From an uncultured bacterium (GTDB taxonomy: Bacteria; Fidelibacterota; Marinisomatia; Marinisomatales; UBA1611): a stretch of 64,000 bases of DNA. Shown piece by piece: positions 1-18,087 of the stretch; position 1 is the stretch's first letter; the number at the start of each line of letters is the position of its first letter. The notes below the pieces were generated by a model, which saw only the letters and a program-made list of their open reading frames with translations, had not been told where the DNA came from and made no database searches. Both the position numbers and the translations under genes were made by a program. The DNA is taken from the NCBI GenBank assembly GCA_943788175.1, contig CALSPG010000005.1, forward strand, positions 320,001-384,000, in the 5' to 3' direction.

Positions 1-1697
1 TGCCGATGCATTACAGCAATAAGAAATTAAGAATTGTTTCTCAGTCTAGTGCGACAGGAACACAATATCTTCAAGCTGTTGGGTGTGCTTTATCTAGAAA
101 ATTAGACAATTCAAAAGAAGTGGTATACGTCTCATCAGGCGAGGGGACTACTAGTCAAGGTGATTTCCATGAAGCTCTTAATTGGGCTGGGAGGGAAAAA
201 GCTCCTGTCATATTTCATATCCAAGATAATGAATATGCGATAAGTACCCACCGTTCAGAACAGACTGCGGGCTCGGTGTACTCACTGGTAAGTGGTTATG
301 AAAATTTATCAAAATATGAAGTAGATGGCACTAATTTCTTTGAATCACATCTTGCATTTAAACAAGCAGTTGAAAGGGCTAAAAGAGGAAAAGGCCCGTC
401 AGTCATTGTATCAAATGTGGTTAGGCTGCTGCCTCACTCAAGTTCTGATGACCAAAGAAAGTATAGAAGCGATAAAGCCTTGAAAAAAGACCTTGATCGT
501 GACCCTATTATCTTATTCAAGAAAAATTGTATTGATGAAGGTATTTTTTCATTAAAAGATGCAGAAAAAATTGAAGCAAAAGCAAAAGAACAAATTGCTT
601 TAGACGCATCTTGGGCTGAGCTACAAAGTCACCCAGATAAAAAAACAGCCCTGAGGTATGTTTTTAGCGAAGATACGATAAAATCGGAAACTAAATTAAC
701 AAAGATATCCGATAGTGTAGTTATAGTGGACGCAATTAACCACGCTCTTCATGAAGAAATGGAAAAAAATAATCGTATGGTCATTTTTGGACAAGATATT
801 GCTGATCCTAAGGGAGGTGTTTTTACGGCAACTAAAGGCCTTTCAACTAAATTTGGCAAAAAAAGAGTTTTTAACTCACCGTTAGCTGAGTCTAGCATCA
901 TTGGTACAGCGGTTGGGATGGCCGTCACTGGATATAAGCCTGTTGTTGAAATTCAGTTTGGAGATTATATATGGACGGCTATGATGCAGATTCGCAATGA
1001 AGTCTCTGTCATGAGGTACAGGTCAAACAACAATTGGAGTGCTCCCATAGTTATTAGAGTGCCGGTGGGTGGATATATTCATGGTGCATTGTGTCATAGT
1101 CAATCAATTGATGGGTATTTTATACACATGCCAGGTATTTACATAGCTTATCCTTCAAATGCTCGAGATGCTAAAGGATTATTGAAGATGGCTTGCAGAA
1201 TGAAAGATCCAGTAATATTCATGGAACACAAAGGATTATATCGTCAGCCCTACGCCTCTACAGAAGAACCTGGTAAAAACTATATTTTGCCGTTTGGTAA
1301 AGCTAGTTACATTTCTAAAGGGGCTCACATAACTTTAATATGTTGGGGGGCAATGGTTCAAAAAAGTTTAGATGCGATTCAAAGCCTCGAGTTGAGTGAA
1401 GATATTGTAGAAATTATTGATCTTCGAACCCTTAATCCCATTGATTATGATATGATCAAAGAATCAATTACCAAAACAGGTAAAGCACTAGTTGTCTATG
1501 AGGATAATATCACAAATGGTCCGGGTTCAGAAATATGTTCAATCATTGCAGATAAATATTTTGAGTATTTAGATGGTCCTGTTCGAAGGGTAGCTTCAAA
1601 AGATAGTCCAGTGCCATATAATTGGTTTTTAGAAGAAAATGTTTTAGTTCAAACTGAAGATATAGCAAGTGCTATCAAAGAATTGTTGGAGTATTAG
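1..1697 (+). CDS. Fused 2-oxoacid (probably branched-chain) dehydrogenase E1 alpha/beta, 5'-truncated by the window edge
   Basis: TPP motif GEG-x(n)-N (SSGEGTTSQG...DNEYA), HSSSDD, beta-domain FNSPLAES, EIQFGDY, HSQS; followed by E2 and lipA. Confidence 0.9.
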   Translation, partial: PMHYSNKKLRIVSQSSATGTQYLQAVGCALSRKLDNSKEVVYVSSGEGTTSQGDFHEALNWAGREKAPVIFHIQDNEYAISTHRSEQTAGSVYSLVSGYENLSKYEVDGTNFFESHLAFKQAVERAKRGKGPSVIVSNVVRLLPHSSSDDQRKYRSDKALKKDLDRDPIILFKKNCIDEGIFSLKDAEKIEAKAKEQIALDASWAELQSHPDKKTALRYVFSEDTIKSETKLTKISDSVVIVDAINHALHEEMEKNNRMVIFGQDIADPKGGVFTATKGLSTKFGKKRVFNSPLAESSIIGTAVGMAVTGYKPVVEIQFGDYIWTAMMQIRNEVSVMRYRSNNNWSAPIVIRVPVGGYIHGALCHSQSIDGYFIHMPGIYIAYPSNARDAKGLLKMACRMKDPVIFMEHKGLYRQPYASTEEPGKNYILPFGKASYISKGAHITLICWGAMVQKSLDAIQSLELSEDIVEIIDLRTLNPIDYDMIKESITKTGKALVVYEDNITNGPGSEICSIIADKYFEYLDGPVRRVASKDSPVPYNWFLEENVLVQTEDIASAIKELLEY

Positions 1698-2987
1698 ATG
1701 GTTATTGATGTAGTGATGCCTAAAATGGGTGAAAGTATTACTGAGGGTACGATACTTGAGTGGTATAAAAAAATTGGGGATGAAATTGAGCAAGATGAAA
1801 CATTGCTTGAGATAGGAACTGATAAAGTTGACTCTGAGATCCCATCTCCAAGCAGTGGTGTCATTACGATGATAATGGCAGAGCCGAATGATGTTGTAGA
1901 TGTTGGAGAAGTGATTGCCAGAATAGAAACAGATTCCAAGTCAGTAAATTTAGAAAAAAGTTCAGAAGTCCCCAAAGATCAAAAGCCTATTGAAAAGCCT
2001 GAAAAAGTAGTAAAAGAAAAAGATGTTCAAATTCAAAATGAACAAAAATCTTTTAATATATCAAGCTCAACTAAAGGGCCTATCCTTTCTCCGGCAGTCA
2101 CTAAATTGGCGAACCAAGAAGGTATTAGCTTTAGTGAACTGGCATTAATTAAGGGTACTGGGAAGTTAAATCGAATTACAAAAAAAGATTTAGAAATGTA
2201 CTTATCCTCTGGTAATAGATCGATCGACAAAAGTTCAATGCAATTGCCAAAAGAGTCTTCATTAAGTTTTGAATTTGCTTCAAACAGTAAAACAGATAAA
2301 CTAGATAATATGAGGAAAAGAATATCAGAGCATATGCGTTATAGTTTGAATACTTCTGCGCATGTACATATTATGAATGAAGTAGATATGACGGACATAG
2401 TTAATTTTGTCAAGAGAGAGGAGGCTTCTTTTCGCTCTAAAGAAGGGTTTAACCTTACTATAACACCATTTATAATTTTTTCATTAGCAAAAGTTTTAAA
2501 TGAAATGCCTGAATTAAATTCATCTCTTGATGGCGATTTAGTCATTCAACATCCACAAATAAATATGGGCATAGCTGTTTCAGTTGATGGTGGTTTAATG
2601 GTCCCTAGCATTAATAATTGTGGTGAGAAAAATTTGCTGGGTATATGTCGTGATTTAAATGCTATTGTGCAAAAAACTCGAGAGAGAGCTATTAATCCTG
2701 ATGATTTACAAGGCTCAACTTTTACCTTATCTAACTTTGGGGTATTTGGTGCGACAATAGGAACTCCTATCATAAACCAACCTAATGTTGGTATCTTAGG
2801 TACTGGGGTAATTAAAAAGCAACCTGTAGTAATAGAGAAAAATGATTTAGATGTTATAGCTATTAGGCAGATGATGATGCTTTCTCTGGGTTTTGACCAT
2901 CGATTAATTGATGGTGCAGGAGGAGCTTTATTTTTGTCAAAAATTAAAAATATTTTAGAAAATTTTAACTTTGAAAATATTCTTTAA
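1698..2987 (+). CDS. Dihydrolipoamide acyltransferase (E2)
   Basis: Lipoyl domain GTDKV, E3-binding GTGKLNRITKKD, catalytic FDHRLIDG. Confidence 0.95.
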   Translation: MVIDVVMPKMGESITEGTILEWYKKIGDEIEQDETLLEIGTDKVDSEIPSPSSGVITMIMAEPNDVVDVGEVIARIETDSKSVNLEKSSEVPKDQKPIEKPEKVVKEKDVQIQNEQKSFNISSSTKGPILSPAVTKLANQEGISFSELALIKGTGKLNRITKKDLEMYLSSGNRSIDKSSMQLPKESSLSFEFASNSKTDKLDNMRKRISEHMRYSLNTSAHVHIMNEVDMTDIVNFVKREEASFRSKEGFNLTITPFIIFSLAKVLNEMPELNSSLDGDLVIQHPQINMGIAVSVDGGLMVPSINNCGEKNLLGICRDLNAIVQKTRERAINPDDLQGSTFTLSNFGVFGATIGTPIINQPNVGILGTGVIKKQPVVIEKNDLDVIAIRQMMMLSLGFDHRLIDGAGGALFLSKIKNILENFNFENIL

Positions 2988-3850
2988 TGTCAGAATTAAT
3001 ACAAAAACCTCACAAACCAAAGATTAAGCTCCAAATAGGAGAGAATTATAAATTTGTCAATAATGTTGTTAAAAATTATAATTTAAATACTGTATGCGCT
3101 GAAGCCAATTGTCCAAATATATACGAGTGTTGGAATAGAGGAACAGCTACGGTTATGATACTTGGAGATACTTGCACAAGAGCTTGTGGATTTTGTGCTG
3201 TTAAAACTGGTAAACCATCTTGGGATGATCCATTAGAGCCATATAGGACTGCGATGGCAGTCAAAAAGATGGATTTAAATCATGTCGTTATTACTAGTGT
3301 AGACAGAGATGATATAAAAAATGATTATGGTTCATCAATTTGGGCTAAAACAATTGAAGAAATACATAAGAATGTTCCAGGGTGTACGGTTGAAGTCCTG
3401 ACACCTGATTTTCAAGGTCACAGTGCTTCATTGGAAAAAGTTTTTCGCGCTAATCCTGAAATATTTAGTCATAATGTAGAATGCGTTGAAAGAATAAGTA
3501 AAGAGGTAAGAACCCAATCTAATTGGCAAAGAAGTTTAAATGTGCTTAGAAGTTCGGCAAACTATGGATTACGAACAAAAACGGGTATTATGGTTGGTCT
3601 AGGTGAAACTTTTGATGAAGTTCTAAAAACAATGGAAGAAACATATTATGCTGGGGTCTCTATCTTTACAATTGGGCAGTATTTACAACCAACTGGAAAG
3701 CATCTTAAAGTACAGCGGTACGTCTCTGATACAGAGTTTAAAAATTATAAAAATTTTGGTTTGAAAATAGGCTTTGATGTTATCGAGTCTGGGCCTCTAG
3801 TTCGTAGCTCTTATCACGCAGATGAACAAGCTCGAATCATAAGAAGATAA
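2987..3850 (+). CDS. lipA: Lipoyl synthase
   Basis: CAEANCPNIYEC, radical SAM CTRACGFC, C-terminal RSSY. Confidence 0.97.
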   Translation: MSELIQKPHKPKIKLQIGENYKFVNNVVKNYNLNTVCAEANCPNIYECWNRGTATVMILGDTCTRACGFCAVKTGKPSWDDPLEPYRTAMAVKKMDLNHVVITSVDRDDIKNDYGSSIWAKTIEEIHKNVPGCTVEVLTPDFQGHSASLEKVFRANPEIFSHNVECVERISKEVRTQSNWQRSLNVLRSSANYGLRTKTGIMVGLGETFDEVLKTMEETYYAGVSIFTIGQYLQPTGKHLKVQRYVSDTEFKNYKNFGLKIGFDVIESGPLVRSSYHADEQARIIRR

Positions 3851-6428: not shown

Positions 6429-6502
6429 GGGCGTTTAGCTCAGCTGGTCAGAGCGCTGCCCTTACAAGGCAGATGTCGGGAGTTCGAATCTCTCAACGCC
6501 CA
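6429..6502 (+). tRNA. tRNA-Val(TAC), integration target
   Basis: GGGCGTT/AACGCCC acceptor stem, anticodon arm CTGCC-CTTACAA-GGCAG, GTTCGAATC T-loop. Confidence 0.96.
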
Positions 6503-6688
6503 CTTCTCAGAAACCCTCGTTTATTGACGGGGGTTTTTGTTTTTATATAAGTCTGTCAAAGTTATCATTCCTTATCATTGTATGACATTTATAATAATTG
6601 GACACATATTTGGAGGACACAACCTAATTCAATTCTTATCTCAACCAAAGTAGGGGGGCATACCCCGTTTGATAGGGGGGGTAGGTAT
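6450..6688 (+). repeat. Left copy (attL region) of an imperfect ~240 bp direct repeat
   Basis: Matches 16416-16650; exact core 6457-6504 = 16423-16470. Confidence 0.93.
6511..6538 (+). terminator. Intrinsic terminator after tRNA-Val (second copy after attR)
   Basis: AAACCCTCGT-TTATTG-ACGGGGGTTTTT hairpin with T-run. Confidence 0.75.
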
Positions 6689-6739: not shown

Positions 6740-6892
6740 ATGGAAATAATTAAGAAATTCTTTGATGGTATTGCTAAGTTTAATTTGAGGAAGTTGAAAG
6801 ATGCTTTTCCATCAATAGCAGATAAGATTGATGTAAGACTAACTCCACCCGATGATGATGCATATTTTACTAACCTTTTAAAGGTCATATAA
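6740..6892 (+). pseudogene. 50-codon ORF homologous to the C-terminus of the element integrase
   Basis: AKFNLRKLKDAFPSIADKIDVRLTPPDDDAYFTNLLKVI* aligns with AKFNLRKLRDDFPSLKERINLRLTPPSEDSYFTTLLNAI* ending at 16316. Confidence 0.85.
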
Positions 6893-7070
6893 GGAATCCT
6901 TTTTACTACATACTCGGTTTTAAAGAGGGGACGTACTTACCCATATGATAGTTAAGTGATTGGGTATTTATATAACCAAAATATTCTACAAATTTAATTC
7001 TATCAATATTAAGTTTTCCCTCTGTTTAAACCTTTTTAATTAACATACCTATCATAAATATTTTTAGAAA

Positions 7071-8993
7071 ATGAATGAAGACATTAAACTTGCTATAAAA
7101 ATTCGTTCCATTGAGGAAAATTTTCTTGAAATGTTTTCCGAGGGTTTATTAAATGGTACAGTTCATACATGCATAGGACAAGAGCTGTCAGGCGTAGGGA
7201 TATCAAAATTTTTAAATAGAGACGATTTTGTTTTTAGTAACCATAGGTGCCATGGTCATTATATTTCATTTACTAAAAAATATAAAAACTTAATAGATGA
7301 ACTAATGGGGAAAGAATCTGGAGTATGTGGTGGCATTGGTGGTAGTCAGCATATAGCGAGTGATAATTTCTTTTCTAATGGGCCTCAGGGGTCTTTGGCA
7401 CCTGTTGCAGTTGGCGTAGCTGAAGGTTTAAAACGCAAAAAAAATAACTCTGTTTCTGTTTGCTTCATCGGTGATGGCACAATGGGTGAAGGTATAATCT
7501 ATGAATCTATGAACTTGATGTCCCTTTATGAATTGCCGATGATTTTGGTATGCGAAAATAACATGTATGCACAATCAACTAGTATAAAAAGTAATTTATC
7601 GGGCGATATCAATTTAAGAGCATCTTCATTTGGAATAAAAGTTTATGAACTTAATACTTGGGATTATGAGGGTCTAATAAAATCCTCTCAAGAGGCAATA
7701 TCAAACGCAAGAAAAAATATCCCATCTTTCATTCATATTAATACTTACAGGTTAAAGGCTCATTCAAAAGGAGATGATAACAGAGATGGAAATGAAATTA
7801 AAGAATTCGAAAAAAAGATTTAATAAATAATTTTATCTTAAACAATGATGAATACGCTAAATATTATAAAGAAATAAAAGATAAAATTAGAGCTTATTCT
7901 AATTCAGTTAGTGAAAATTCTCAAATGGACAAAAATAAATATGTGGACGGTGAGAAGCTTAAACTATATAAAAAAATATTCATTATGTGATGTGAGAATT
8001 GAAAAAAAGCAATCAGATTTAATTAATAATTATTTTCATGAAAGCATAAATGATGATAAAAATATTTTATTGATTGGTGAAGATATTAAAGATCCTTATG
8101 GCGGAGCTTTTAAAATAACAAAAGGGTTATCTGATAGATATAATGAAAATGTTATTTCCACCCCTATTTCTGAAGCTGCAATAGTAGGCATGGGTATTGG
8201 ACTATCCATTCTAGGCTTTAAGCCTTACGTAGAAATCATGTTTGGAGACTTTATCACATATGCGTTTGATCAAATAGTTTCTAATGCTTCTAAGTTTTAT
8301 CATATGTACAATAAAAAGTACAATGTCCCTCTAGTTATAAGGACTCCCATGGGTGGAAATAGAGGCTATGGGCCAACACATTCACAAAGTATTGAAAAAT
8401 TCTTCATTGGCGTAAATAACATTCAAATAGTCGCGCTTAATACATTATTGAAGCCAAAAGAAATATATGAATCAATTAAAAATTTTAAACATCTTACACT
8501 TTTAATCGAAAATAAAGTTGATTATGGAAGATTAATCAATTATTCGCCTAAATCTATTAATTATGAATTCAAAAAATCCGACTCTGATTATCCGATAATT
8601 ACTGGAGAGCCTGTCAGTGCTAAAGCAAAAATAAGTGTTATTACTTATGGTGGTTCTATCCATCCTGTATTAGAAAGCATAGACGATATATTTTTTGAGT
8701 TTGAAGAATTTATTAAAGTAATTGTAATTACTAAACTGTATCCACTCGACATGGAAGAATTATCATTACTAACAAAGGATTCTTATTTTATAATTACGGT
8801 AGAAGAGAGTAATATTGAAGGTGGGTTTGGTTCAGAAATAATCTCTGGTCTTTCAGAAATAGAAAATGAAAAACAAAAAAAATACTTAAGGATTGGTTCG
8901 GAAAATGTACCTATACCATCAACAAAAAAACTTGAAAGTGAGATTTTAGTTTCTAAAGATTTAATTGTCCGAAAAATGAAAGAAATGTTATGA
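7071..8993 (+). CDS. Cargo fused TPP-dependent E1 alpha/beta (dehydrogenase/transketolase-like), split by two indels in A7 runs (ORFs 7071-7823 and 7911-8993)
   Basis: HTCIGQE, HRCHGH, GDG...ENN, HSKGDD in the first ORF; TPISEA, EIMFGDF, GPTHSQS in the second; both ORFs share a frame and the linker is open in another frame between A-runs 7810-7816 and 7970-7976. Confidence 0.85.
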
Positions 8994-10189
8994 GCGTAAT
9001 TGAAACTTTGAAAATCCCTCAAGATAATGTAAACGATAATGATGTGACTATATCAAGCATTTTCATTGAAAAGAATGATTATGTTGATGTAAATACTCTT
9101 GTTTTAGATTATGAGACATCAAAAGCAAATTTTGAATTATTTATTACAAAGTCAGGCTATGTGCAGCTTAATTGCAAAGAGGGGGAGATTGTTAAAATTG
9201 GACAAACTATTGGTATTGTTTCAGATGACAAAGATTACGTCCATCAATTTGAAGAAAATATAAATGAGAAAGAATTTTCTAAACAAACATTCAGCAAAAA
9301 AGCAGAAATTTTAATTAATGAAATGTCAATTGATAAGAGTGTCTTTAAGTATGAACAATTTGTCACTGAGGAAATTGTTAGAAATTTTTTAAATGATTCA
9401 AATGACATTATACCAAGTGGTGACATAATTAAAATTTCTCCACGAAAATATTTTGAGATAAAAAACTTAACTAATGTTAGTAGGAACGGGCTCGTTTCTA
9501 CAATTGAAAAAACAATCAATAGTTCTATAGTTGATACGGACTCAATTTATGAAAAAAATGAGTTTAAAGGGTCATTATCTATTTTGCTCATTAAAGTAAT
9601 ATCAGACTTACTTAAAATAGAAAAATATAAACATTTAAATAGTTATTGCGACGGGGAAAATATCTATATTAATAATGATGTAAATTTTGGTCTAGCGCTC
9701 AATTTAGGTTCTGGTCTAAAAATAGGAGTTATAAAAAAATCTAATTCTTTATCAATTAATGAAATAGAATCAAAAACAATACAGTTAATAGATAAATACA
9801 TTGATGATAAACTTCAAAAAGAAGATATTGAGGATTTTTCAATTGTATTGACTGATTTAACAGAAAAAGAGATTGATAACTTTACACCTCTCATTACTTC
9901 TTCAAATACAATAATGATTGGTTTATGTGGAGTAAAAGGTTCAACCCAAAGATTAATAATCTCATTTGATCACAGAGTTTCAGATGGATTAGAAATTGCA
10001 AATTTTATGAATGATATTATATCAACTTTAAAAAATGAATATCCCAATTTTATTGATGAAAATAGTTGTTCATCGTGTTTAAAAACTATTGAAGAAGATA
10101 AAGAGCTTGATACTCCGGGTCTAATAAGAATACTAGGTCATGATAAAACATTAAAATTCATTTGTAGAAATTGTTTAGAAGGATTTTAA
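8990..10189 (+). CDS. Cargo E2-like lipoyl/acyltransferase with a C-terminal Cys4 extension
   Basis: Lipoyl-Lys motif ETSKA, catalytic FDHRVSDG, tail CSSC...CRNC. Confidence 0.85.
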   Translation: MSVIETLKIPQDNVNDNDVTISSIFIEKNDYVDVNTLVLDYETSKANFELFITKSGYVQLNCKEGEIVKIGQTIGIVSDDKDYVHQFEENINEKEFSKQTFSKKAEILINEMSIDKSVFKYEQFVTEEIVRNFLNDSNDIIPSGDIIKISPRKYFEIKNLTNVSRNGLVSTIEKTINSSIVDTDSIYEKNEFKGSLSILLIKVISDLLKIEKYKHLNSYCDGENIYINNDVNFGLALNLGSGLKIGVIKKSNSLSINEIESKTIQLIDKYIDDKLQKEDIEDFSIVLTDLTEKEIDNFTPLITSSNTIMIGLCGVKGSTQRLIISFDHRVSDGLEIANFMNDIISTLKNEYPNFIDENSCSSCLKTIEEDKELDTPGLIRILGHDKTLKFICRNCLEGF

Positions 10190-10191
10190 AC

Positions 10192-10413
10192 ATGAGCGAT
10201 CTAATAATAAAAAAAATAGTTTCAGTATTTCTTAAAACTAAACCGAATAAAATTACAAATGATACCATAATTGACACCTCGGTAATACAGGGGAGTGTGT
10301 TGTTTCATAGAATGATTGCACGTATAAATGATTATTGTAATATTGAAATTGAAAATTATGATAAAATTCATACTTTCCAAGATTTATTAGATCAAATTAA
10401 ATTAAAGCAATGA
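10192..10413 (+). CDS. Acyl carrier protein-like
   Basis: 73 aa, ACP-like pattern (ITNDT..., Ser in QGSV, TFQDL), directly upstream of a PPTase. Confidence 0.65.
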   Translation: MSDLIIKKIVSVFLKTKPNKITNDTIIDTSVIQGSVLFHRMIARINDYCNIEIENYDKIHTFQDLLDQIKLKQ

Positions 10414-10417
10414 GTTT

Positions 10418-10738
10418 TTGTTAAGATTTGGTGTTGATATTATTGAAATTGATTCATTCCCATCTTTTATTAAAGGTAAGGATGATTCTTTCTTTTTGTA
10501 TAATTATACAAAAAGCGAAATAGAATTTGCTAAAAACAAACTCAACCCGGATATTGAGTTTGTTAAAATGTTTTCAATTAAAGAGTCTCTTGTCAAGTCA
10601 GACAATTTATTAGTAGGAAAGAATTTTAATAAAATAGAATTGTCATTTGTTGGGGATTGTTATATTTATAATGATTACAAGATAACTACATCAACTGCGA
10701 ACAATAATTGCATATCATTTGTTTTAAGCACTACGTAA
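10418..10738 (+). CDS. AcpS-type 4'-phosphopantetheinyl transferase
   Basis: GVDII and FSIKESLVK motifs, 106 aa. Confidence 0.8.
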   Translation: MLRFGVDIIEIDSFPSFIKGKDDSFFLYNYTKSEIEFAKNKLNPDIEFVKMFSIKESLVKSDNLLVGKNFNKIELSFVGDCYIYNDYKITTSTANNNCISFVLSTT

Positions 10739-10873
10739 TCTTTTGTAGGCATAATAATTGGTTTAATGTTATGGAGGTGTAAGTAGGGTATGCTTTAAAA
10801 CGGAGGATGAACAGATGAACACTTATTACATATACTACCTACACTATTGAGATGTATGGATTTATATATAAAC

Positions 10874-11773
10874 CTAATTAAGGAGTTCGGGGTAGTCATC
10901 AATATCATCTAAACTATCACTTAAATATTTGGCATCATCGTTACGAAGTAAGTGAGGTGCATATAGAACTAATAGATTAAGAATAGTTTTATCAGTACAT
11001 CCATAGTGTTCAGATAATTTCTTCTTATTGATGTTTCCATTCTTTTTAAATCTGATCGAGTCTACAACCTTTTCTAATCTTCCACTTTCTAAGTCTTCTT
11101 GAAATGCAACTTCGTATCTTTTATTTTTGTATTTCTTTTTTAACTCACGCTCTTTTAATAAGGCTTGTGTTGTTACCCTTAATTGATTTTCTAAAACACT
11201 TGCAGAAGTATGTACCACGGGTTTTTCTGTTTCAGATAAATTTGGTAAAGTATTTGCATCAAGTAAGGTAGGGGCAAAGTCTATCATAACACCCTTTACT
11301 TGAAACCAATTTTCAAATTCTAATTTAGGTTTATAAAGAATATGTTCATCAGATATGAACTTGCTTCTGCCGTCATTAAAACTTTTAGGTAACATATTAA
11401 TTATCCAAGTGTATATCATTTTATTAAAGGCTATACAAAAGTTCTTATTATCAAGATTCAAACCTTTGATGTAAGAATATTGATTATCAAGAGTAACTTG
11501 ATGAACTAATTTTTCTCCTTGCTTATATTTCCAAGTAGTTGGCTGATTGAAATAAACATTAAAAGAATACAATGGGAACTCATATTCTTCACCATAACCC
11601 CATTTCTGATAATTCGCTTCGATACCTAATTCATTTTGTTGCTCATTATAGAACTGATTGAAGTCTTGAATCTTTTTATTGATTCTTGTTAAAACTCTTA
11701 ATCTGTCTTTCTCATCTCCCCTTATCCATTCATCGGTATAGGGTTTTGTTATCTCTCCTATCAGTAAACTCAA
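10874..11773 (-). CDS. Hypothetical protein with a possible C-terminal HTH (candidate element regulator)
   Basis: 299 aa ORF; KKKLSEHYGCTDKTILNLL is HTH-like; divergent from xis. Confidence 0.55.
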   Translation of the reverse strand: MSLLIGEITKPYTDEWIRGDEKDRLRVLTRINKKIQDFNQFYNEQQNELGIEANYQKWGYGEEYEFPLYSFNVYFNQPTTWKYKQGEKLVHQVTLDNQYSYIKGLNLDNKNFCIAFNKMIYTWIINMLPKSFNDGRSKFISDEHILYKPKLEFENWFQVKGVMIDFAPTLLDANTLPNLSETEKPVVHTSASVLENQLRVTTQALLKERELKKKYKNKRYEVAFQEDLESGRLEKVVDSIRFKKNGNINKKKLSEHYGCTDKTILNLLVLYAPHLLRNDDAKYLSDSLDDIDDYPELLN

Positions 11774-11949
11774 CCTTGTTTGTTATATACCCCACCCCAA
11801 GCAAAATTAATAGGGAGTAGTTCTTTTAGTTTATCATTATCGATATAATCTGAATTAATCTTATTAGCCTCACACATTTTGTAGATCATTTCTATCAATC
11901 CTATTTGTTCATAGGCATCTTGTAATGTAGGTGTTTTCTTTTCTTCCAT
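11770..11949 (-). CDS. Small hypothetical protein (59 aa)
   Basis: ATG at 11949; stop overlaps the start of the 299 aa gene. Confidence 0.5.
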   Translation of the reverse strand: MEEKKTPTLQDAYEQIGLIEMIYKMCEANKINSDYIDNDKLKELLPINFAWGGVYNKQG

Positions 11950-11958
11950 ATTTCTTTT

Positions 11959-11992
11959 TTCGGAGTAATTCCGAAATAATTCGGATTTCGGA
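11959..11992. promoter_or_regulatory. Array of four TTCGGA/TCCGAA hexamers in the divergent control region
   Basis: Copies at 11959, 11970 (inverted), 11980, 11987. Confidence 0.55.
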
Positions 11993-12066
11993 TGGCGCGA
12001 ATTTATGATGTAATAGGGTATGGCACAACTAATCAAGGTTGGTCATAAACCAATAGGAAATGAATA

Positions 12067-12285
12067 ATGGAAATAAGAATAGTTGAATTATTAAATGAAA
12101 TAAGAACTCTAATACTTGGCAAGGTAAATGAGAGATGGTTGAATCTCAGAGATGTATCTGAATACACATCTGTTTCAGAAAGTACAATTCGTAGGGCAAT
12201 CAAAAAAGGTGTCCTTAAATCATCAAACAAAACGGGAAGATTACTTTTTAAAGTATCTGATGTTGATAGGTGGCTGAACTCATAA
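12067..12285 (+). CDS. Excisionase/AlpA-like HTH DNA-binding protein
   Basis: WLNLRDVSEYTSVSESTIRRAIKKG...LLFKVSDVDRWL, HTH_17-like pattern. Confidence 0.88.
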   Translation: MEIRIVELLNEIRTLILGKVNERWLNLRDVSEYTSVSESTIRRAIKKGVLKSSNKTGRLLFKVSDVDRWLNS

Positions 12286-14206
12286 TGGATTACACCCATA
12301 TCTTTGAAAGAGACTTCAAATAGAAGTTAATAAGCGAAGTGGGATTCAATGGCAAGGTAGATGTCCATTACCAAGCCACGAAGATAGAAAAGCATCCTTT
12401 TCTTGGAATATAGATAACGGACTATGGAAATGTCACGGGTGCTTTGAATCGGGGAATGCTTATCAATTAGCAGAAATATTAGGTATAGCAAACCCATCCC
12501 AATATATAGAAAAAGAAACGGGGGGATATAGGAACAACCCCCCTCCAATACAGAAAGTTAATGTAATGAGTAGTGAAGAACTCGATGCACTTAAAAAAAA
12601 GTATCACTCAAATCTAACTGAACAAGATACCACATTTACCAATCCATATACAATACACGGAAGACGGGATGATGGGAATTTAGTTTTCTTTCTACCCGAT
12701 GCAATTAAGCATCACAAGTCTCAACCATATTGGGAGGGCAACAATAAGAAGTGTCAAATATTTGGTAGTGAATATCTTGCTGAGATAGATGCGAATGATA
12801 CTCTATACATATTCGAGGGAGAAAAAGAAGTATGTTACTCTCCATACAAGGGAATCAGTTTCACGGCTGGTGCTGGAAATGTTCCCGAAGACTTATCTCA
12901 ATTATACGCCTATAAAGATATTTGCATCATTCCCGATAATGATGATGCTGGATATAAGGGTGCTGATAAATGGGCAAAGGTCTGTTCAAGTAAATGGGGT
13001 GCATCCGTAAGGATTGCACAATGGGATGAGACACTCCCAAAAGGTTACGATGTGTATGATGATTATGTCCGTTCAACAAATGGAGATGAAGATTACATAT
13101 TTGATGAAACCGATAAGGCAATCAGCAAAGCAATCCCCTTTAAAGAAAATAACCACAAAACTGAAATTGGAGGTTTCAATACAATGGCAATAAACAACTA
13201 CATACAAACATATCAAGATGAAGAAGTAAGTCATATCATAGATGGATTATTAGTTAAAGGAGGTGTGACAATCCTTGCTGGTTCTGATGGAGTTGGTAAG
13301 TCTTGGTTAGGTTTACAAATGGGATTCTGTATCTCAAATGGAAATGAGTTCTTAGGTTGGGAAACAAAGAAGATGCCCGTTCTGCTTATTCAATTTGAAT
13401 TAGGTACGGCTCAACTGAAAGATAGATTACAGATACTATCTAAATCCTATGATATGAATACTGATTTCAATGTGGTAGACCTATCAGATGAAGACCTCAT
13501 CTTTACAGATGCTTGGGATAAGATAGAACAGACTATTGATAATCAATCTTTTACGGATGGAGTTATCATTGTAGATAATCTATATGCAAGTACTGATAAG
13601 GATGTATCTCAAAATCACGAACTCAAACCTATCTTAAAAAAGATAAGAAAGTTGTGTGTGGAGTATGACAATGCTTTTGTCTTGATTGCTCATCACAATA
13701 AGAACGAAAAAGATGATGAGCCGATCCTGACAAAAAAACTGATAACGGGAGGGAAGACACTTACAAATTTCCCCAACAATGTTATTCAAGTTGGCAGTAG
13801 CAGTTTAGGTAATGACATCTTTAGAGGCAAGATTACAAAGATAAGAGATAAAGGTAGTGATTTAATAAACATTCCTTTTATCCTCAACTTTGACCAAGAC
13901 ACTTGTGTTTTTTCAAGGGGTGTAATCATTGTATCTGAGATACTTCATTGCCAACCCATTAAAAAGAGATGGGAATATGAATTGCTTATAGACTTCCTTG
14001 CCTATCAATCTAATGAGGCGTTTACTCGTTCAAGGTTATGGCAATTCCTATCTACAAAAGACGGATGGGAAAAGACTCCATCAAATCAAACTAAGGTTAC
14101 AAGGTTTCTAAGTAGAATGAAAACTTGGGGATTCATTATAGAGCGTGAATACAATCTGTATGAATTAAGCCTTGAAGATATAAGGAGGCTGGAAGAAGAA
14201 AGATGA
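12285..14206 (+). CDS. Primase-helicase (CHC2 Zn finger + Toprim + RecA/AAA_25-like helicase), with one indel near 12310
   Basis: Frame upstream of 12566 reads CPLPSHED...WKCHGC; Toprim EGEKE and DNDDAG; Walker A GSDGVGKS, Walker B IIVDN; ATG overlaps the xis stop (TAATG). Confidence 0.85.
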
Positions 14207-14225
14207 TTTACGGGGGGTGAATATA

Positions 14226-14294
14226 GTGTTTAAGTGTTCATCTTAGGTGCTTATGTATTCCCCTCTCAAATGAACAGATAAACAGACTTAACCA
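14226..14294. repeat. Inverted iteron-like repeats (candidate replication origin)
   Basis: GTGTTTAAGTGTTCATC facing ATGAACAGATAAACAG just after the helicase stop; same motif at 10806-10825. Confidence 0.55.
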
Positions 14295-14698
14295 TACATA
14301 GCAAGAGGATTTAAAGATAATGGAATATAAAGTAATGGACTTTCAAAAATATACAGACTACTTAGGTGATAGGTGGGATGATACTATTGAAATGGGAAAG
14401 TTTGATACCTATGAAATGGCATTGGAATCGAATGAGTATCATTGAGCAAGACCTTGCAAACGGGTAAGAATGGATTGCCTAAAGATAGTACTTTAGAACT
14501 AATTCAATTCGTAACAGAGTCACATCATACGGGTGGTAATAAGTCTTAATGAAGATGGCTGGATTGTGGTACTACACAAACCCGATATTGTTACAGATGT
14601 TACAAATGTTACAGATGGCTCAGAAGTAGGTACTCAAGCACACGCTGAACAGGAGGTAAACTAGGGCTATCTCTCACTCAGAACAGAGAGACATCGAC

Positions 14699-15058
14699 TT
14701 GTCAAAACTTGACATTGAAGATGATATTTTCCCCCCTAAAAAAGGTGCAGATGAGGATAGTAACTCCCCCAATTTTGGCAGAGGTCAGCATCCTAATTCA
14801 AAGAAGAATCTGAAGCCATTATGAGAAAGGTGTTAGTGGTAATCCATCGGGTAAACCAAAAAAGGTAGCACAATTAAAAGAGGTCTTAGATTGGTGGGGT
14901 AGGCTTAACTGAATATGATAATTGGTCTTGGGATAAATACACCAATAGAGCAAATGGTAGTCAAAGGTATATGGAAAAGAGCAACCTCATGGTAATAGAC
15001 AAGACTTAGATATTTGCTATCACTTGGATTACTTGATTCAGACAAGTTTAAAGACTAA
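14699..15058 (+). pseudogene. Frameshifted DUF5681/terminase-small-subunit-like gene
   Basis: Reads HPNSKKNLKP/YEKGVSGNPSGKPKK across a 1-nt shift, matching the NLKPFKKGQSGNPxGRP motif. Confidence 0.6.
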
Positions 15059-15200
15059 TTTAGGAACGCTTAAATCAACATGTTAAATATACCTAAATAC
15101 AATTCCCCCTATGAGATGTGGTCAGCAGTAATGCCCCAAACGATTTCAACATGTTATCGTAAGCCATCTTTGGGGGGATGTAGGTAATAGGAGTCAGCAT

Positions 15201-16316
15201 ATGGCTACATATATAAAACAAAGAAAACGTCAGTACTCATCCCGTATTCAATGGAGAGACTGAGAATGGTAATAAGAGAGAACGAAAAATACCTCTTAAA
15301 ACTTCTTCTAAATCTGTTGCAGTAGTCAGAAACAATGAAGTAACGAAAGTTGAAGATACTATTATCGATGGAGATAATTGGTCTTTTGCTTGGATGAATG
15401 ATGATGGTAAAAGTTAAACTAATTAGATTATCTATTAGCGAGGCTTATGAAGAATATAGGATTGTCCAAAACATAGATGGAGTGAGAGCGTCTACGCTCG
15501 ATCGAGTTGATAACTCTATGAAGACACTATATAAAGTCTTTGGAGAGAACTATCCAATAGCATCATTAACATACTCGCATATAGAACAATTCAAAGAGTA
15601 TTGGCACGGAACACATCAACCAACTACAATGAATATTAATCTATCAAAGATTAAAGCGTTTCATAATTGGTGTCTTAAAAAAAGATATACTATAAAAGAT
15701 GTAGAGTTTAAGATGGTTAAGGAAGATGAAAAGCCTCCACAATATCTAACAGATGCTGAGTTTAAAAGCATAATGAAATGTGATATAATAGATGACCATT
15801 TCAAGAAAGCATTTGTATTCTATTTGTATACGGGTTGTAGAAAAACAGAACCATTTATTGCAGACTTAAATGGTAATTGGCTTACAATCAAATCAACAGA
15901 TGCTAAGTCTCACAGAACTCGTGATATTGAATTAAATGAAGTAACTAAGGGCATAGTTCAAGATATGAGAGATAGGTATCATTACTATATGGATGAATAT
16001 GCACAGAAACCAAGAAATGTGATTATGAACTATGGTAAGCAGTTCAAAAAGGCTTGTAGATACTTAGGTATCAAGGGCAAGACCTTACATTCATTGAGAC
16101 ATACTTATGCAGTTAGACGCTGGGCAATCACGGGAGACATTAAGATGGTATCTCAAGAGATTGGTCATAGTCTCAGTAGTGATGACAGAGAAGTATGCTA
16201 AGTTCAATCTTAGAAAGTTAAGAGATGATTTCCCCTCATTAAAAGAGCGTATCAATCTTAGACTTACTCCACCAAGTGAAGACTCATATTTTACTACGCT
16301 TTTAAATGCTATTTAG
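15201..16316 (+). CDS. Tyrosine integrase, three apparent 1-nt frameshifts (~15260, ~15410, ~16170)
   Basis: RBS AGGAG, ATG 15201; TGCRKTE, HSLRHTYA, IGHS/SVVMTEKY with the catalytic Tyr in the next frame; adjacent to attR. Confidence 0.9.
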
Positions 16317-16415: not shown

Positions 16416-16650
16416 AGAGCGTTGCCCTTACAAGGCAGATGTCGGGAGTTCGAATCTCTCAACGCCCACTCCTCAGAAACCCTCGTTTATTGACGGGGGT
16501 TTTTGTTTTTCTACAAGTCTGTCAAAGTCGTCATTCCTTATCATTGTATGACATTTATAATAGGAACTTTGGAGGCTACCAAGCCCTAATTCAATTACTT
16601 ATTTCAACCAAAGTAGGGGGGCATACCCCGTTTGATAGGTCGGTAGGTAT
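16416..16650 (+). repeat. Right copy (attR: 3' part of tRNA-Val plus ~180 bp)
   Basis: Matches 6450-6688; lacks the tRNA 5' end. Confidence 0.93.
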
Positions 16651-17673: not shown

Positions 17674-18087
17674 ATGATGTTAAATTCAATAAATATTTCG
17701 ATAAAAAATATTAAAGTAGATAGTCTTGGCGCTTTGGTAAGCGGCTTATGCATGTTGCATTGTCTTGCAACGCCAATCTTTTTTATTGCTTCAGCTTGTT
17801 CAGCAGCATGTTGTAACTTTGCTCCAACTTGGTGGCAATCATTAGATTATATTTTTCTAGTTATTTCTCTTTTTGCTGTAATCCAAGCATCTAGAAATTC
17901 AAATAGTTCATTGGTTCCTAGGGGGCTACTAGCTAGTTGGTTAGGGTTAGGTTTTTTTATATTGAACGCTAAGTTTGGTTGGATTAGCGTTCATCAGAAT
18001 ATTAAGTTTATTCCTGCGTTTCTTCTTATTGGATTTCATCTATACAATATGAAGTACTGTCAATGTGAGAGCAATGAATGTTGCTAA
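17674..18087 (+). CDS. MerC-domain membrane protein
   Basis: DSLGALVSGLCMLHCLATP MerC signature, 4 hydrophobic segments, Cys-rich tail. Confidence 0.82.
   Translation: MMLNSINISIKNIKVDSLGALVSGLCMLHCLATPIFFIASACSAACCNFAPTWWQSLDYIFLVISLFAVIQASRNSNSSLVPRGLLASWLGLGFFILNAKFGWISVHQNIKFIPAFLLIGFHLYNMKYCQCESNECC

Follow-up and report, generated by a model that had tools for sequence, protein, structure and literature searches.

A putative acyl-carrier loading cassette of E1, E2, carrier protein and phosphopantetheinyl transferase on a tRNA-Val island of a Marinisomatales genome

Organization of the cassette

The window analysed here is a 64,000-nt stretch of a contig from an uncultured bacterium of the order Marinisomatales (assembly GCA_943788175.1, contig CALSPG010000005.1, positions 320,001-384,000). 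A compact cassette at positions 7071-10738 on its forward strand encodes five functions, namely the alpha and beta parts of a thiamin diphosphate (ThDP)-dependent E1, a lipoyl-bearing E2, a small protein with the fold of an acyl carrier protein (ACP) and an AcpS-type 4'-phosphopantetheinyl transferase (PPTase). Judging from its domains and from related loci, it is reasonably likely that the cassette is a self-contained acyl-carrier loading module that donates to the acylation of a cell-surface glycan.

The genes are closely packed, with E1 and E2 overlapping by 4 nt and with gaps of 2 nt between E2 and ACP and 4 nt between ACP and PPTase. The GC content over 7501-11000 is 0.25-0.30 compared with 0.31-0.40 on both flanks. 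These features bear out an initial annotation of the locus, which had described a tightly coupled, AT-richer operon, and its placement of E1, E2, ACP-like protein and AcpS-like PPTase agrees with our domain searches and open reading frames (ORFs). Its reading of the fused E1 as a single ORF does not hold for the window assembly, where E1 is found as three frame pieces. As it had also stated, neither an E3 nor an acceptor enzyme was found inside the island by profile searches of the island ORFs, and a separate host operon lies upstream, where a fused E1, an E2 and lipA were located at 6-3850; lon and tRNA-Val are also upstream of the cassette. Promoter-like sites were observed to be no more numerous than in shuffled sequence and the tRNA terminator alone stood out. 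The acyltransferase partners in relatives, the two E2 classes, the E1 frameshifts and the decay of the island, all described below, were not mentioned in that annotation.

The E1 component and its frameshifts

The fused ThDP-dependent E1 (alpha and beta; 7071-8993, + strand) was assigned from Pfam and NCBIfam matches, from its reading frames, and by comparison with two metagenome contigs (L100 and L083) and with contigs of three DNA runs. The alpha part (7071-7823) matches E1_dh (PF00676, E 8.4e-44) and its translation contains a GDG-X26-NN sequence, the ThDP-binding motif being GDG-X(24-27)-NN. The beta part, which starts at 7911 or 7995 and ends at 8993, matches Transket_pyr (PF02779, E 3.2e-22) and Transketolase_C (PF02780, E 2.4e-11). 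Among solved structures, the alpha and beta subunits of pyruvate dehydrogenase (PDH) E1 are the nearest (E ~1e-29 to 5e-31), and the alpha part is closer to PDH (E ~1e-29) than to branched-chain 2-oxoacid dehydrogenase (BCKDH, ~3e-17). The window E1 scores below the curated PDH cut-offs, with 194.2 against 393.85 bits for TIGR03182 and 140 against 321 bits for PRK09212. Based on the nearest solved and curated families, the substrate of E1 may be pyruvate-like, or possibly a ketose phosphate, as in the Qnc system of quinocarcin biosynthesis.

The three frame pieces of the window E1 are located at 7071-7823, at about 7808-7990 in another frame and at 7995-8993 in the first frame again. The alpha frame stops at 7823 and the out-of-frame stretch in the middle comprises ~55 codons. 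Two single-base indels account for this pattern, a -1 indel in the A-run at ~7810-7816 and a +1 indel in the A-run at ~7970-7976. In alignments to L100 and L083, the window has A7 against A8 at ~7810 and A7 against A6 at ~7970; over 2,817 nt, L100 shares 97% identity with the window. An intact 640-aa fused E1 gene is found in both of these contigs and in three metagenome DNA assemblies (X1-X3), and the E1 of relatives was observed to be one ORF of 638-668 aa (8 loci in one set and 12 in another).

The three DNA runs come from three studies and all carry an extra A behind 7809 (variant/total depth 3.8/3.8, 23.4/23.4 and 3.92/3.92) and one base fewer at 7970 (3.8/3.8, 23.4/23.4 and 3.87/3.87). 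The extra A behind 7809 is also present in a contig from an RNA-library run (depth 2.7/2.7). We noticed that the X1-X3 runs also show a one-base difference to the window at each of positions 7028 and 10794. The X1 contig (record 4) has no mismatch with the window and only the two E1 gaps, and X1 may be the source sample of the window. As a control for homopolymer errors, we counted 49 A/T runs of at least 7 within 27 long ORFs that are uninterrupted and lie in other parts of the window; the control is soft, as these ORFs were picked for being intact. The frameshifts may be an assembly error in a poorly covered island or they may be real lesions; whichever their origin, the population carries an intact fused E1.

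E2, carrier protein and PPTase

The E2 (8990-10189, + strand) consists of a lipoyl domain (K45), a linker, a catalytic domain (H328) and a C-terminal CxxC...CxxC tail, as assigned by Pfam, NCBIfam, alignment and structure search. The catalytic domain is matched by PF00198 (2-oxoacid_dh, E 1.3e-23) and the nearest solved structures are E2 cores (E 4e-9). The lipoyl domain lies under the Pfam cut-off in the window (17.5 against 22.1 bits), and PF00364 is annotated in most relatives. Residues T43, S44 and K45 of the lipoyl motif ETSKA were found to be invariant in all 20 aligned E2 relatives, and so were F326, D327, H328, R329 and G333 of the catalytic motif FDHRVSDG. The linker is short with a conserved FSKKA segment, and the zinc-ribbon tail occupies residues ~360-399. 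The E3-binding domain PF02817 was detected neither in the window E2 by Pfam nor in the cassette-type relatives (P0001-P0073), and it is present in the canonical E2 matches P0076-P0081 and in most rows below them. From its sequence, the conserved FSKKA...VTE segment might be a degenerate peripheral subunit-binding domain.

The dedicated carrier protein (10192-10413, + strand, 73 aa) was assigned by alignment, by an AlphaFold model and by the matches of this model to PDB structures. The model is a four-helix bundle (helices 2-14, 30-33, 36-49 and 62-72) with a predicted local distance difference test score (pLDDT) of 82.4. Its top PDB matches are all ACPs with TM-scores of 0.72-0.82, where the best E-value of 3.5e-3 is weak because the protein is short. 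Gly34 and Ser35 are located directly before helix II (36-49), and in the ACP alignment G34 occurs in 15/15 rows and S35 in 14/15. The NCBIfam ACP model PRK00982.1-4 matches the protein with E 1e-4 and 22.5 bits, which is below its cut-off of 66.

The AcpS-type PPTase (10418-10738, + strand, 106 aa) is matched by ACPS (PF01648) with 32.5 bits against a gathering cut-off of 25, and its assignment also draws on its fusion to the ACP in six related loci. Its translation holds GVDIIEI and FSIKESLVK; GxD and KE..K are the motifs of AcpS-type PPTases.

A complex of the E2 trimer (residues 140-399) with the ACP was predicted with a score of 0.55, compared with 0.00 for the best of three controls. Contacts agree by at least 91% between the runs and the pLDDT of the partner is at least 82. 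The mark used for such predictions is reached by 58 of 80 solved complexes and by 2 of 110 mismatched pairs; scores that reach it at or below 0.60 were obtained for only 7 of the 80 solved complexes and for both passing mismatches. The prediction weakly supports the pairing.

Conservation of the cassette in related loci

Related loci were gathered with the E2 alignment from genome, metagenome and viral contigs, and their six-frame ORFs were scanned with hidden Markov models (HMMs) for the ACP, the PPTase and a membrane-bound O-acyltransferase (MBOAT), as well as for an SGNH-like protein. A total of 160 loci were found to have an E2 match, 40 of which are cassette-type (E <=1e-20 and a match reaching residue 340 or further). 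Among the 36 cassette-type loci with at least 500 nt downstream, a PPTase directly after E2 was observed in 24 and an ACP in 22, as opposed to an ACP or PPTase in 0 of 105 canonical E2 loci; these counts are to be read with the knowledge that 15 of the loci counted had already served to build the HMMs and that the metagenome loci are not independent. The retention of the ACP and PPTase beside E1/E2 homologues, which had been set beforehand as a test of the initial annotation, is therefore seen in most of these loci. In the same 36 loci, an MBOAT gene follows E2 directly in six, and six have neither ACP/PPTase nor MBOAT.

ACP and PPTase are joined in one ORF in six loci (L005, L006, L007, L008, L010 and L016). 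These fusions span at least four phyla, with Geobacteraceae, Spirochaetaceae, Lachnospiraceae and Planctomycetota represented. L008 and L016 are two long-E2 cassettes (defined below) with fused ACP-PPTase in one Spirochaetaceae metagenome-assembled genome. One of these two cassettes lies in a glycan locus (AT3 and left-handed beta-helix, LbH, genes), and the other is surrounded by genes that, judging from their initial residues, seemed to be unrelated.

The E1-beta tree separates the 32 cassette-type rows, without exception, from 24 canonical rows (the host's own E1 among them) and L011 by a branch with a support of 100 in the Shimodaira-Hasegawa-like approximate likelihood ratio test (SH-aLRT). 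The tree was built with one third of the canonical loci and without the near-copies L116, L133 and L157, and L105, which carried the label canonical in it, is actually a long-E2 locus. An E1 phylogeny had been proposed in the initial annotation, and in this comparison with canonical E1 the cassette-type proteins stand apart. An all-against-all profile search gave 84 E2 clusters (50% identity) at E <=1e-30, and members of the cassette family, which is not rare, come from six or more bacterial phyla. In the window's taxonomic family 2 of 54 genomes have the E2, and in its order 2 of 233, both counts including the window's genome. Such patchy occurrence within lineages fits horizontal spread as a surface-variation module.

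These results bear on whether the cassette simply encodes a catabolic dehydrogenase of the 2-oxoacid or acetoin type, with acyl-CoA as its product and with the ACP and PPTase genes beside it by chance. The best curated matches of the window proteins, PDH E1 alpha (TIGR03182, 194 bits) and E1 beta (PRK09212, 140 bits), would suit such an enzyme, as would the PDH E1 structures nearest to it and the six relatives that have no ACP and no PPTase. However, both scores fall far under the curated cut-offs, E3 and the E3-binding domain are absent, and the E1 clade is separate from canonical E1. The host also has a complete E1/E2/lipA set nearby, the neighbours in related loci are glycan genes and not catabolic genes, and adjacency to ACP and PPTase at 22-24 of 36 loci against none of 105, with the ACP-PPTase fusions in addition, is hard to ascribe to chance. 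A catabolic role is therefore considered very unlikely.

Neighbouring genes and output layouts

Every annotated neighbourhood of a relative was observed to be a glycan locus, with GT1, GT2, GT4, Bac_transf, Polysacc_deac_1 and Polysacc_synt genes. These loci also hold methyltransferases, sulfotransferases, an ATP-sulfurylase fusion, and AT3, MBOAT and LbH acyltransferases. The gene-neighbourhood survey suggested by the initial annotation is thus in line with its idea of surface-glycan modification. We also noticed, in the glycan locus of a long-E2 cassette, a 737-aa protein (L088:1158-3371) that combines a pyruvate kinase barrel with PUA-like and ATP-sulfurylase parts.

The neighbourhoods speak to two other possible destinations of the acyl group. 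The cassette could supply glycolyl-ACP, as in the Qnc and Scl systems, to a non-ribosomal peptide synthetase (NRPS) or polyketide synthase (PKS) line encoded elsewhere, and its part list corresponds to SclQ1-4 plus SclP and QncN/L/M as given in PMC6335953. However, no NRPS or PKS gene was found in the window or in any annotated related locus and the genome is small (2.27 Mb in 12 contigs, 92% complete), and we give such a supply role hardly any weight. Alternatively, the acyl-ACP could modify a lipid and not a polysaccharide, with lipid A, an aminolipid or the head group of a phospholipid as candidates. In L090 an LPG_synthase_TM protein and a GNAT/FemAB-like protein are encoded downstream, and the host has LpxD/LpxA-like enzymes, which are users of acyl-ACP. 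Most neighbourhoods are nevertheless glycosyltransferase and polysaccharide-export loci and the host LbH matches are generic, which makes a lipid target quite improbable.

The E2 proteins fall into two classes. The long E2 with the C-terminal CxxC...CxxC tail is found in 12 of the 20 aligned relatives and the window belongs to this class, the remaining E2 being short. Where at least 1 kb beyond E2 is available, an MBOAT gene was observed in 0 of 10 long-E2 loci and in 10 of 14 short-E2 loci, with three more short-E2 loci having it within shorter flanks. The two classes interleave on the E1 tree. As an example, the nearest MBOAT-bearing relative of the window, L085, shares 80-85% identity in E1 and 72% in E2 with it, and 58% in the ACP and 33% in the PPTase. 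Because the latter two values are far under those of E1 and E2, the comparison suggests that the downstream half of the cassette was swapped as a block.

In the short-E2 relatives L003, L085, L093, L096, L097 and L099, the MBOAT gene comes immediately after the PPTase gene. The MBOAT profile PF03062 was confirmed for L003 and L009 (E ~4e-18). The C-terminus is FIYFQF in all six MBOATs inspected and matches the FXYXXF acyl-shuttle motif, the tyrosine of which carries the acyl group from the MBOAT to its SGNH partner according to PMC12148441. The protein that follows the MBOAT is 302-329 aa in length with an N-terminal transmembrane helix and invariant GSS and D..H (DxxH) motifs. It has no Pfam match and is likely to be DltD/SGNH-like. 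Its structural model, built from only four sequences, is poor (pLDDT 55.8), and Foldseek matches of the model to GDSL, PatB and OatA structures are weak (E 5e-3 to 5e-2); because of this, the matches were taken as not contradicting the assignment. The presence of an MBOAT with FIYFQF and of an SGNH-like protein after the cassette therefore points to a putative Dlt-like route that would be loaded by E1/E2 and not by a ligase.

Other arrangements were observed beyond the short-E2 class. In two long-E2 loci (L088 and L016), an LbH acyltransferase gene is located directly upstream of E1. In a third layout (L156, L157 and L162), the protein encoded after the fused E1 combines a lipoyl domain with PglD_N and a hexapeptide LbH sugar N-acyltransferase, so that from the sequence the lipoyl arm appears to be joined directly to a sugar N-acyltransferase. 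L162:8001-11017, from an IMG/VR viral contig, encodes an E1 of 666 aa and then a 345-aa lipoyl-PglD_N-LbH protein, and this layout is flanked by a piece of a DegT aminotransferase and by GT4/GT9 genes. The succession of E1 and lipoyl-PglD in L156 and L162 therefore ties the E1 clade to sugar acylation. Among viral contigs, only 1 of 59 pattern matches is a true relative and it has this lipoyl-PglD layout. In L110 (2282-2695) and L111 (3-419), a 137-aa stand-alone lipoyl-domain protein comes after E1, and the genes after that encode a 70-aa GNAT-like piece, a GFO_IDH_MocA oxidoreductase and an enzyme of the B12-binding radical SAM type.

Proposed function

From the observed domains, conserved residues, synteny and fusions we infer each chemical step and the glycan target as follows. 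The fused ThDP E1 would make an acyl equivalent from a small 2-oxo acid and would reductively acylate the lipoyl arm on Lys45 of the cassette E2. The E2 (His328 in FDHRVSDG) would then deliver this group not to CoA but to the Ser35-bound phosphopantetheine arm of the 73-aa carrier, which the adjacent AcpS-type PPTase would have primed beforehand. The dihydrolipoyl arm would be reoxidised by the host lipoamide dehydrogenase, and the lipoyl group itself would be made by the host LipA pathway. Use of host LipA and E3 had been anticipated in the initial annotation, and both are available, as the LipA gene is present in the genome and the lipoamide dehydrogenase Lpd scores 523.8 bits, above its cut-off. 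The adjacency of ACP and PPTase, the absence of an E3 and the absence of PF02817 all count toward transfer to a carrier over transfer to CoA.

The resulting acyl-carrier protein would serve as a private donor for acylating a cell-surface glycan. In the short-E2 relatives, this donor would feed the FXYXXF MBOAT and the membrane-anchored GSS/DxxH protein, and E1/E2 would replace the DltA ligase. For the long-E2 class, to which the window belongs, our first guess of an acceptor is a cytoplasmic LbH sugar N-acyltransferase. We also considered that the ACP might supply octanoate for the lipoylation of E2; this was set aside as no fatty-acid synthase genes are found alongside and the MBOAT linkage in relatives opposes it.

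A more speculative and rather improbable extension is that the long-E2 class acts as a portable acyl-donor cartridge. An integrative element would introduce nothing but E1, zinc-ribbon E2, ACP and PPTase into the cell. An acyltransferase of the host that uses acyl-ACP to modify sugars or lipids would take the new acyl-ACP, the zinc ribbon would serve for docking, and supply of glycan acylation from a lipoyl arm would be a general, so far undescribed strategy. If so, a 3.7-kb insert could alter surface acylation without a new transferase, a serotype conversion by donor supply. The family would then have at least three outputs: ACP-MBOAT-SGNH, ACP with another acceptor, and direct fusion of the lipoyl domain with a transferase of the PglD type, which is seen on a viral contig as well.

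The tRNA-Val island

Judging from the sequence, a tRNA-Val island with decaying mobility genes carries the cassette as cargo. The tRNA-Val(TAC) gene (6429-6503, + strand) was identified by ARAGORN and its 3' 54 nt start the left direct repeat at 6450-6676. The two segments of this repeat, 6450-6596 and 6635-6676, correspond to 16416-16562 (147 nt, 96% identity) and 16598-16639 (42 nt, 98%), respectively. The right repeat (16416-16639), recognised by repeat comparison, thus contains a partial tRNA-Val 3' end and the sequence beyond it. A remnant of an integrase C-terminus (6772-6891, + strand), 73% identical to 16196-16315, is located between the left repeat and the cassette; in the X2 and X3 contigs an integrase body runs straight into 6772, and the same layout is found in L083.

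Downstream of the cassette are two opposite-strand genes of 299 and 88 aa (10874-12036, - strand) with no Pfam or PHROG match, a HTH_17 excisionase-like regulator (12067-12285, + strand; PF12728 E 4e-11, phrog_66 E 1.7e-8) and a primase/helicase with a CHC2 zinc finger and AAA_25 (12308-14206, + strand; phrog_239 E 7.2e-30). The CHC2 part of the latter (12308-12565) lies upstream of the first ATG at 12566, and the start may be non-canonical or misplaced. In the next 1.2 kb (14207-15397), open frames reach at most 79 aa whichever of the six frames is read, and the segment looks degenerate; its short fragments shift from frame to frame, as would be expected of a degraded gene or of numerous indel errors. 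A tyrosine integrase (15398-16316, + strand; phrog_1 E 4.8e-28) follows, the last 40 codons of which are out of frame. Its body ends at 16201 and the C-terminal segment with ...VVMTEKYAKF... is in another frame (16098-16316); in the assembly, the body is therefore severed from the segment in which the catalytic tyrosine would be expected. The mobility claimed in the initial annotation is well founded in that direct repeats with the tRNA-Val 3' end bracket the cassette together with the integrase and the excisionase-like and primase/helicase genes. The remainder of the window is housekeeping, and a gene for a MerC-family membrane protein (17674-18087) lies just outside the right repeat.

Relatives indicate how variable this site is. 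L093 has lon, tRNA-Val, the cassette, MBOAT and SGNH genes at the same site and no mobile genes. In L096 (1099-1321), the MBOAT after the cassette stops at ~38 codons and is followed by an integrase piece with 80% protein identity to residues 203-247 of the window integrase, so in this relative the acceptor gene was lost to mobile DNA. By these comparisons the tRNA-Val locus is a recombination hotspot at which the cassette behaves as exchangeable cargo.

Points against the proposal and the state of the window copy

Several observations weigh against the proposed loading module, besides the shared origin of HMMs and counted loci and the weak SGNH structure matches given above. The window E1 is interrupted as assembled. 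The 73-aa protein has no Pfam match, including to PF00550 (PP-binding), and the relative L008 has Thr at the position of Ser35. In L009, L104, L106, L112, L116 and L133, E2 is followed by MBOAT without ACP or PPTase, four of these (L009, L112, L116 and L133) being near-identical to each other; in this branch the E2 may make acyl-CoA or the ACP may be encoded elsewhere. A small ORF upstream of E1 in L106 is ACP-like by eye and has no Pfam match. A further six relatives have neither ACP/PPTase nor MBOAT. With regard to the acceptor, no glycan locus is present within the 64-kb window, no MBOAT (PF03062) was found in the window or in the 92%-complete genome, and this genome gave no match to the L093 SGNH-like protein or to a 456-aa membrane protein encoded in L086. 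Searches with the L088 and L016 LbH acyltransferases as acceptor candidates gave only generic LbH matches on other contigs, which are probably LpxA/LpxD-like. These absences are not proof of a missing acceptor because of the incomplete genome.

Alternatively, the window copy may be an inert remnant, cut from its acceptor genes by rearrangement of mobile DNA and decaying with the island, in which case the function of the family may still stand. Two indels break E1 as assembled, the integrase body and its C-terminus are read in different frames, long ORFs are lacking in 14207-15397, and the genome has no MBOAT, SGNH-like match or specific acceptor. The cassette with MBOAT and SGNH genes and no mobile genes at the same site in L093, and the cut MBOAT of L096, would illustrate such a loss, and the 49 A/T runs in intact ORFs, although chosen as intact, speak against general homopolymer errors. 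On the other hand, MBOAT is missing in all 10 long-E2 loci with enough flank, and its absence is therefore characteristic of the class and was not brought about locally. The window has uninterrupted genes for E2, ACP and PPTase, and the X1 contig with its intact E1 fits an assembly error in a low-coverage island. Furthermore, a metatranscriptome run holds pieces of E1 and E2, which is a weak hint of expression as DNA can occur in such a library. We consider an inert remnant doubtful, though it deserves more weight than the other alternatives. If the proposed loading module is correct, the window adds that a tRNA-Val island can carry the loading half by itself, that the zinc-ribbon E2 marks the MBOAT-less class, and that class can switch between close relatives (E2 72% identical).

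Comparison with known systems

The cassette resembles canonical PDH, BCKDH and acetoin dehydrogenase in its ThDP motif, lipoyl-lysine motif and DHRxxDG, and differs from them in having no E3 or detectable E3-binding domain, in its fused E1, in its separate clade and in its linkage to ACP and PPTase. Its part list agrees with those of the Qnc (QncN/L/M, quinocarcin) and Scl (SclQ1-4 plus SclP, scleric acid) systems, for which PMC6335953 gives ThDP, pyrimidine, transketolase-C and lipoyl-acyltransferase parts and an ACP, and a PPTase (SclP) in the scl cluster. In those systems a carrier protein, and not CoA, receives the acyl group and the product is glycolyl-ACP (PMC6335953). Unlike the present loci, which are glycan loci or a mobile island, they are actinomycete NRPS clusters that feed a peptide line. 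In addition, E1 alpha and beta are fused here whereas Qnc has a fusion of beta with E2, and the E2 of the present cassette ends in a zinc-ribbon tail. The comparison with Qnc and Scl was made by part list.

The MBOATs of relatives share the C-terminal FXYXXF (FIYFQF) with PatA-type enzymes of the PatA/PatB and AlgI-type MBOAT-SGNH systems, and unlike in those systems, a carrier, a PPTase and a loading enzyme are encoded beside the MBOAT. MBOAT/SGNH pathways other than Dlt use acyl-CoA without a carrier protein, according to PMC12148441. Like Dlt (DltA, DltC, DltB, DltX and DltD), the short-E2 relatives encode a carrier beside an MBOAT and a membrane-anchored Ser...Asp-x-x-His protein. The shared logic would be the passage of the acyl group from the carrier thioester to the MBOAT, to the tyrosine shuttle, to the SGNH protein and then to the polymer, as outlined for Dlt in the same paper (PMC12148441). 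The differences from Dlt are that the carrier would be loaded by E1/E2 and lipoate and not by an adenylating ligase, that the acyl group would not be an amino acid, that FXYXXF is on the MBOAT itself and not on a DltX microprotein, and that the window copy has neither MBOAT nor SGNH protein.

The loading half of the proposed module is thus known in parts from Qnc/Scl and the output half from the logic of Dlt and Pat. In the literature covered, which included few subscription journals and no supplements, we found no paper that joins E1/E2 and lipoyl components with a carrier protein for glycan or MBOAT acylation, and we found no description of the two halves together. If the proposal is correct, it would give access to acyl groups that cells do not hold as CoA esters. 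It would also represent a second carrier-protein-fed route of glycan acylation besides Dlt, and the first such route to rely on a thiamine/lipoate enzyme pair, and not on an ATP-dependent ligase, for loading of the carrier.

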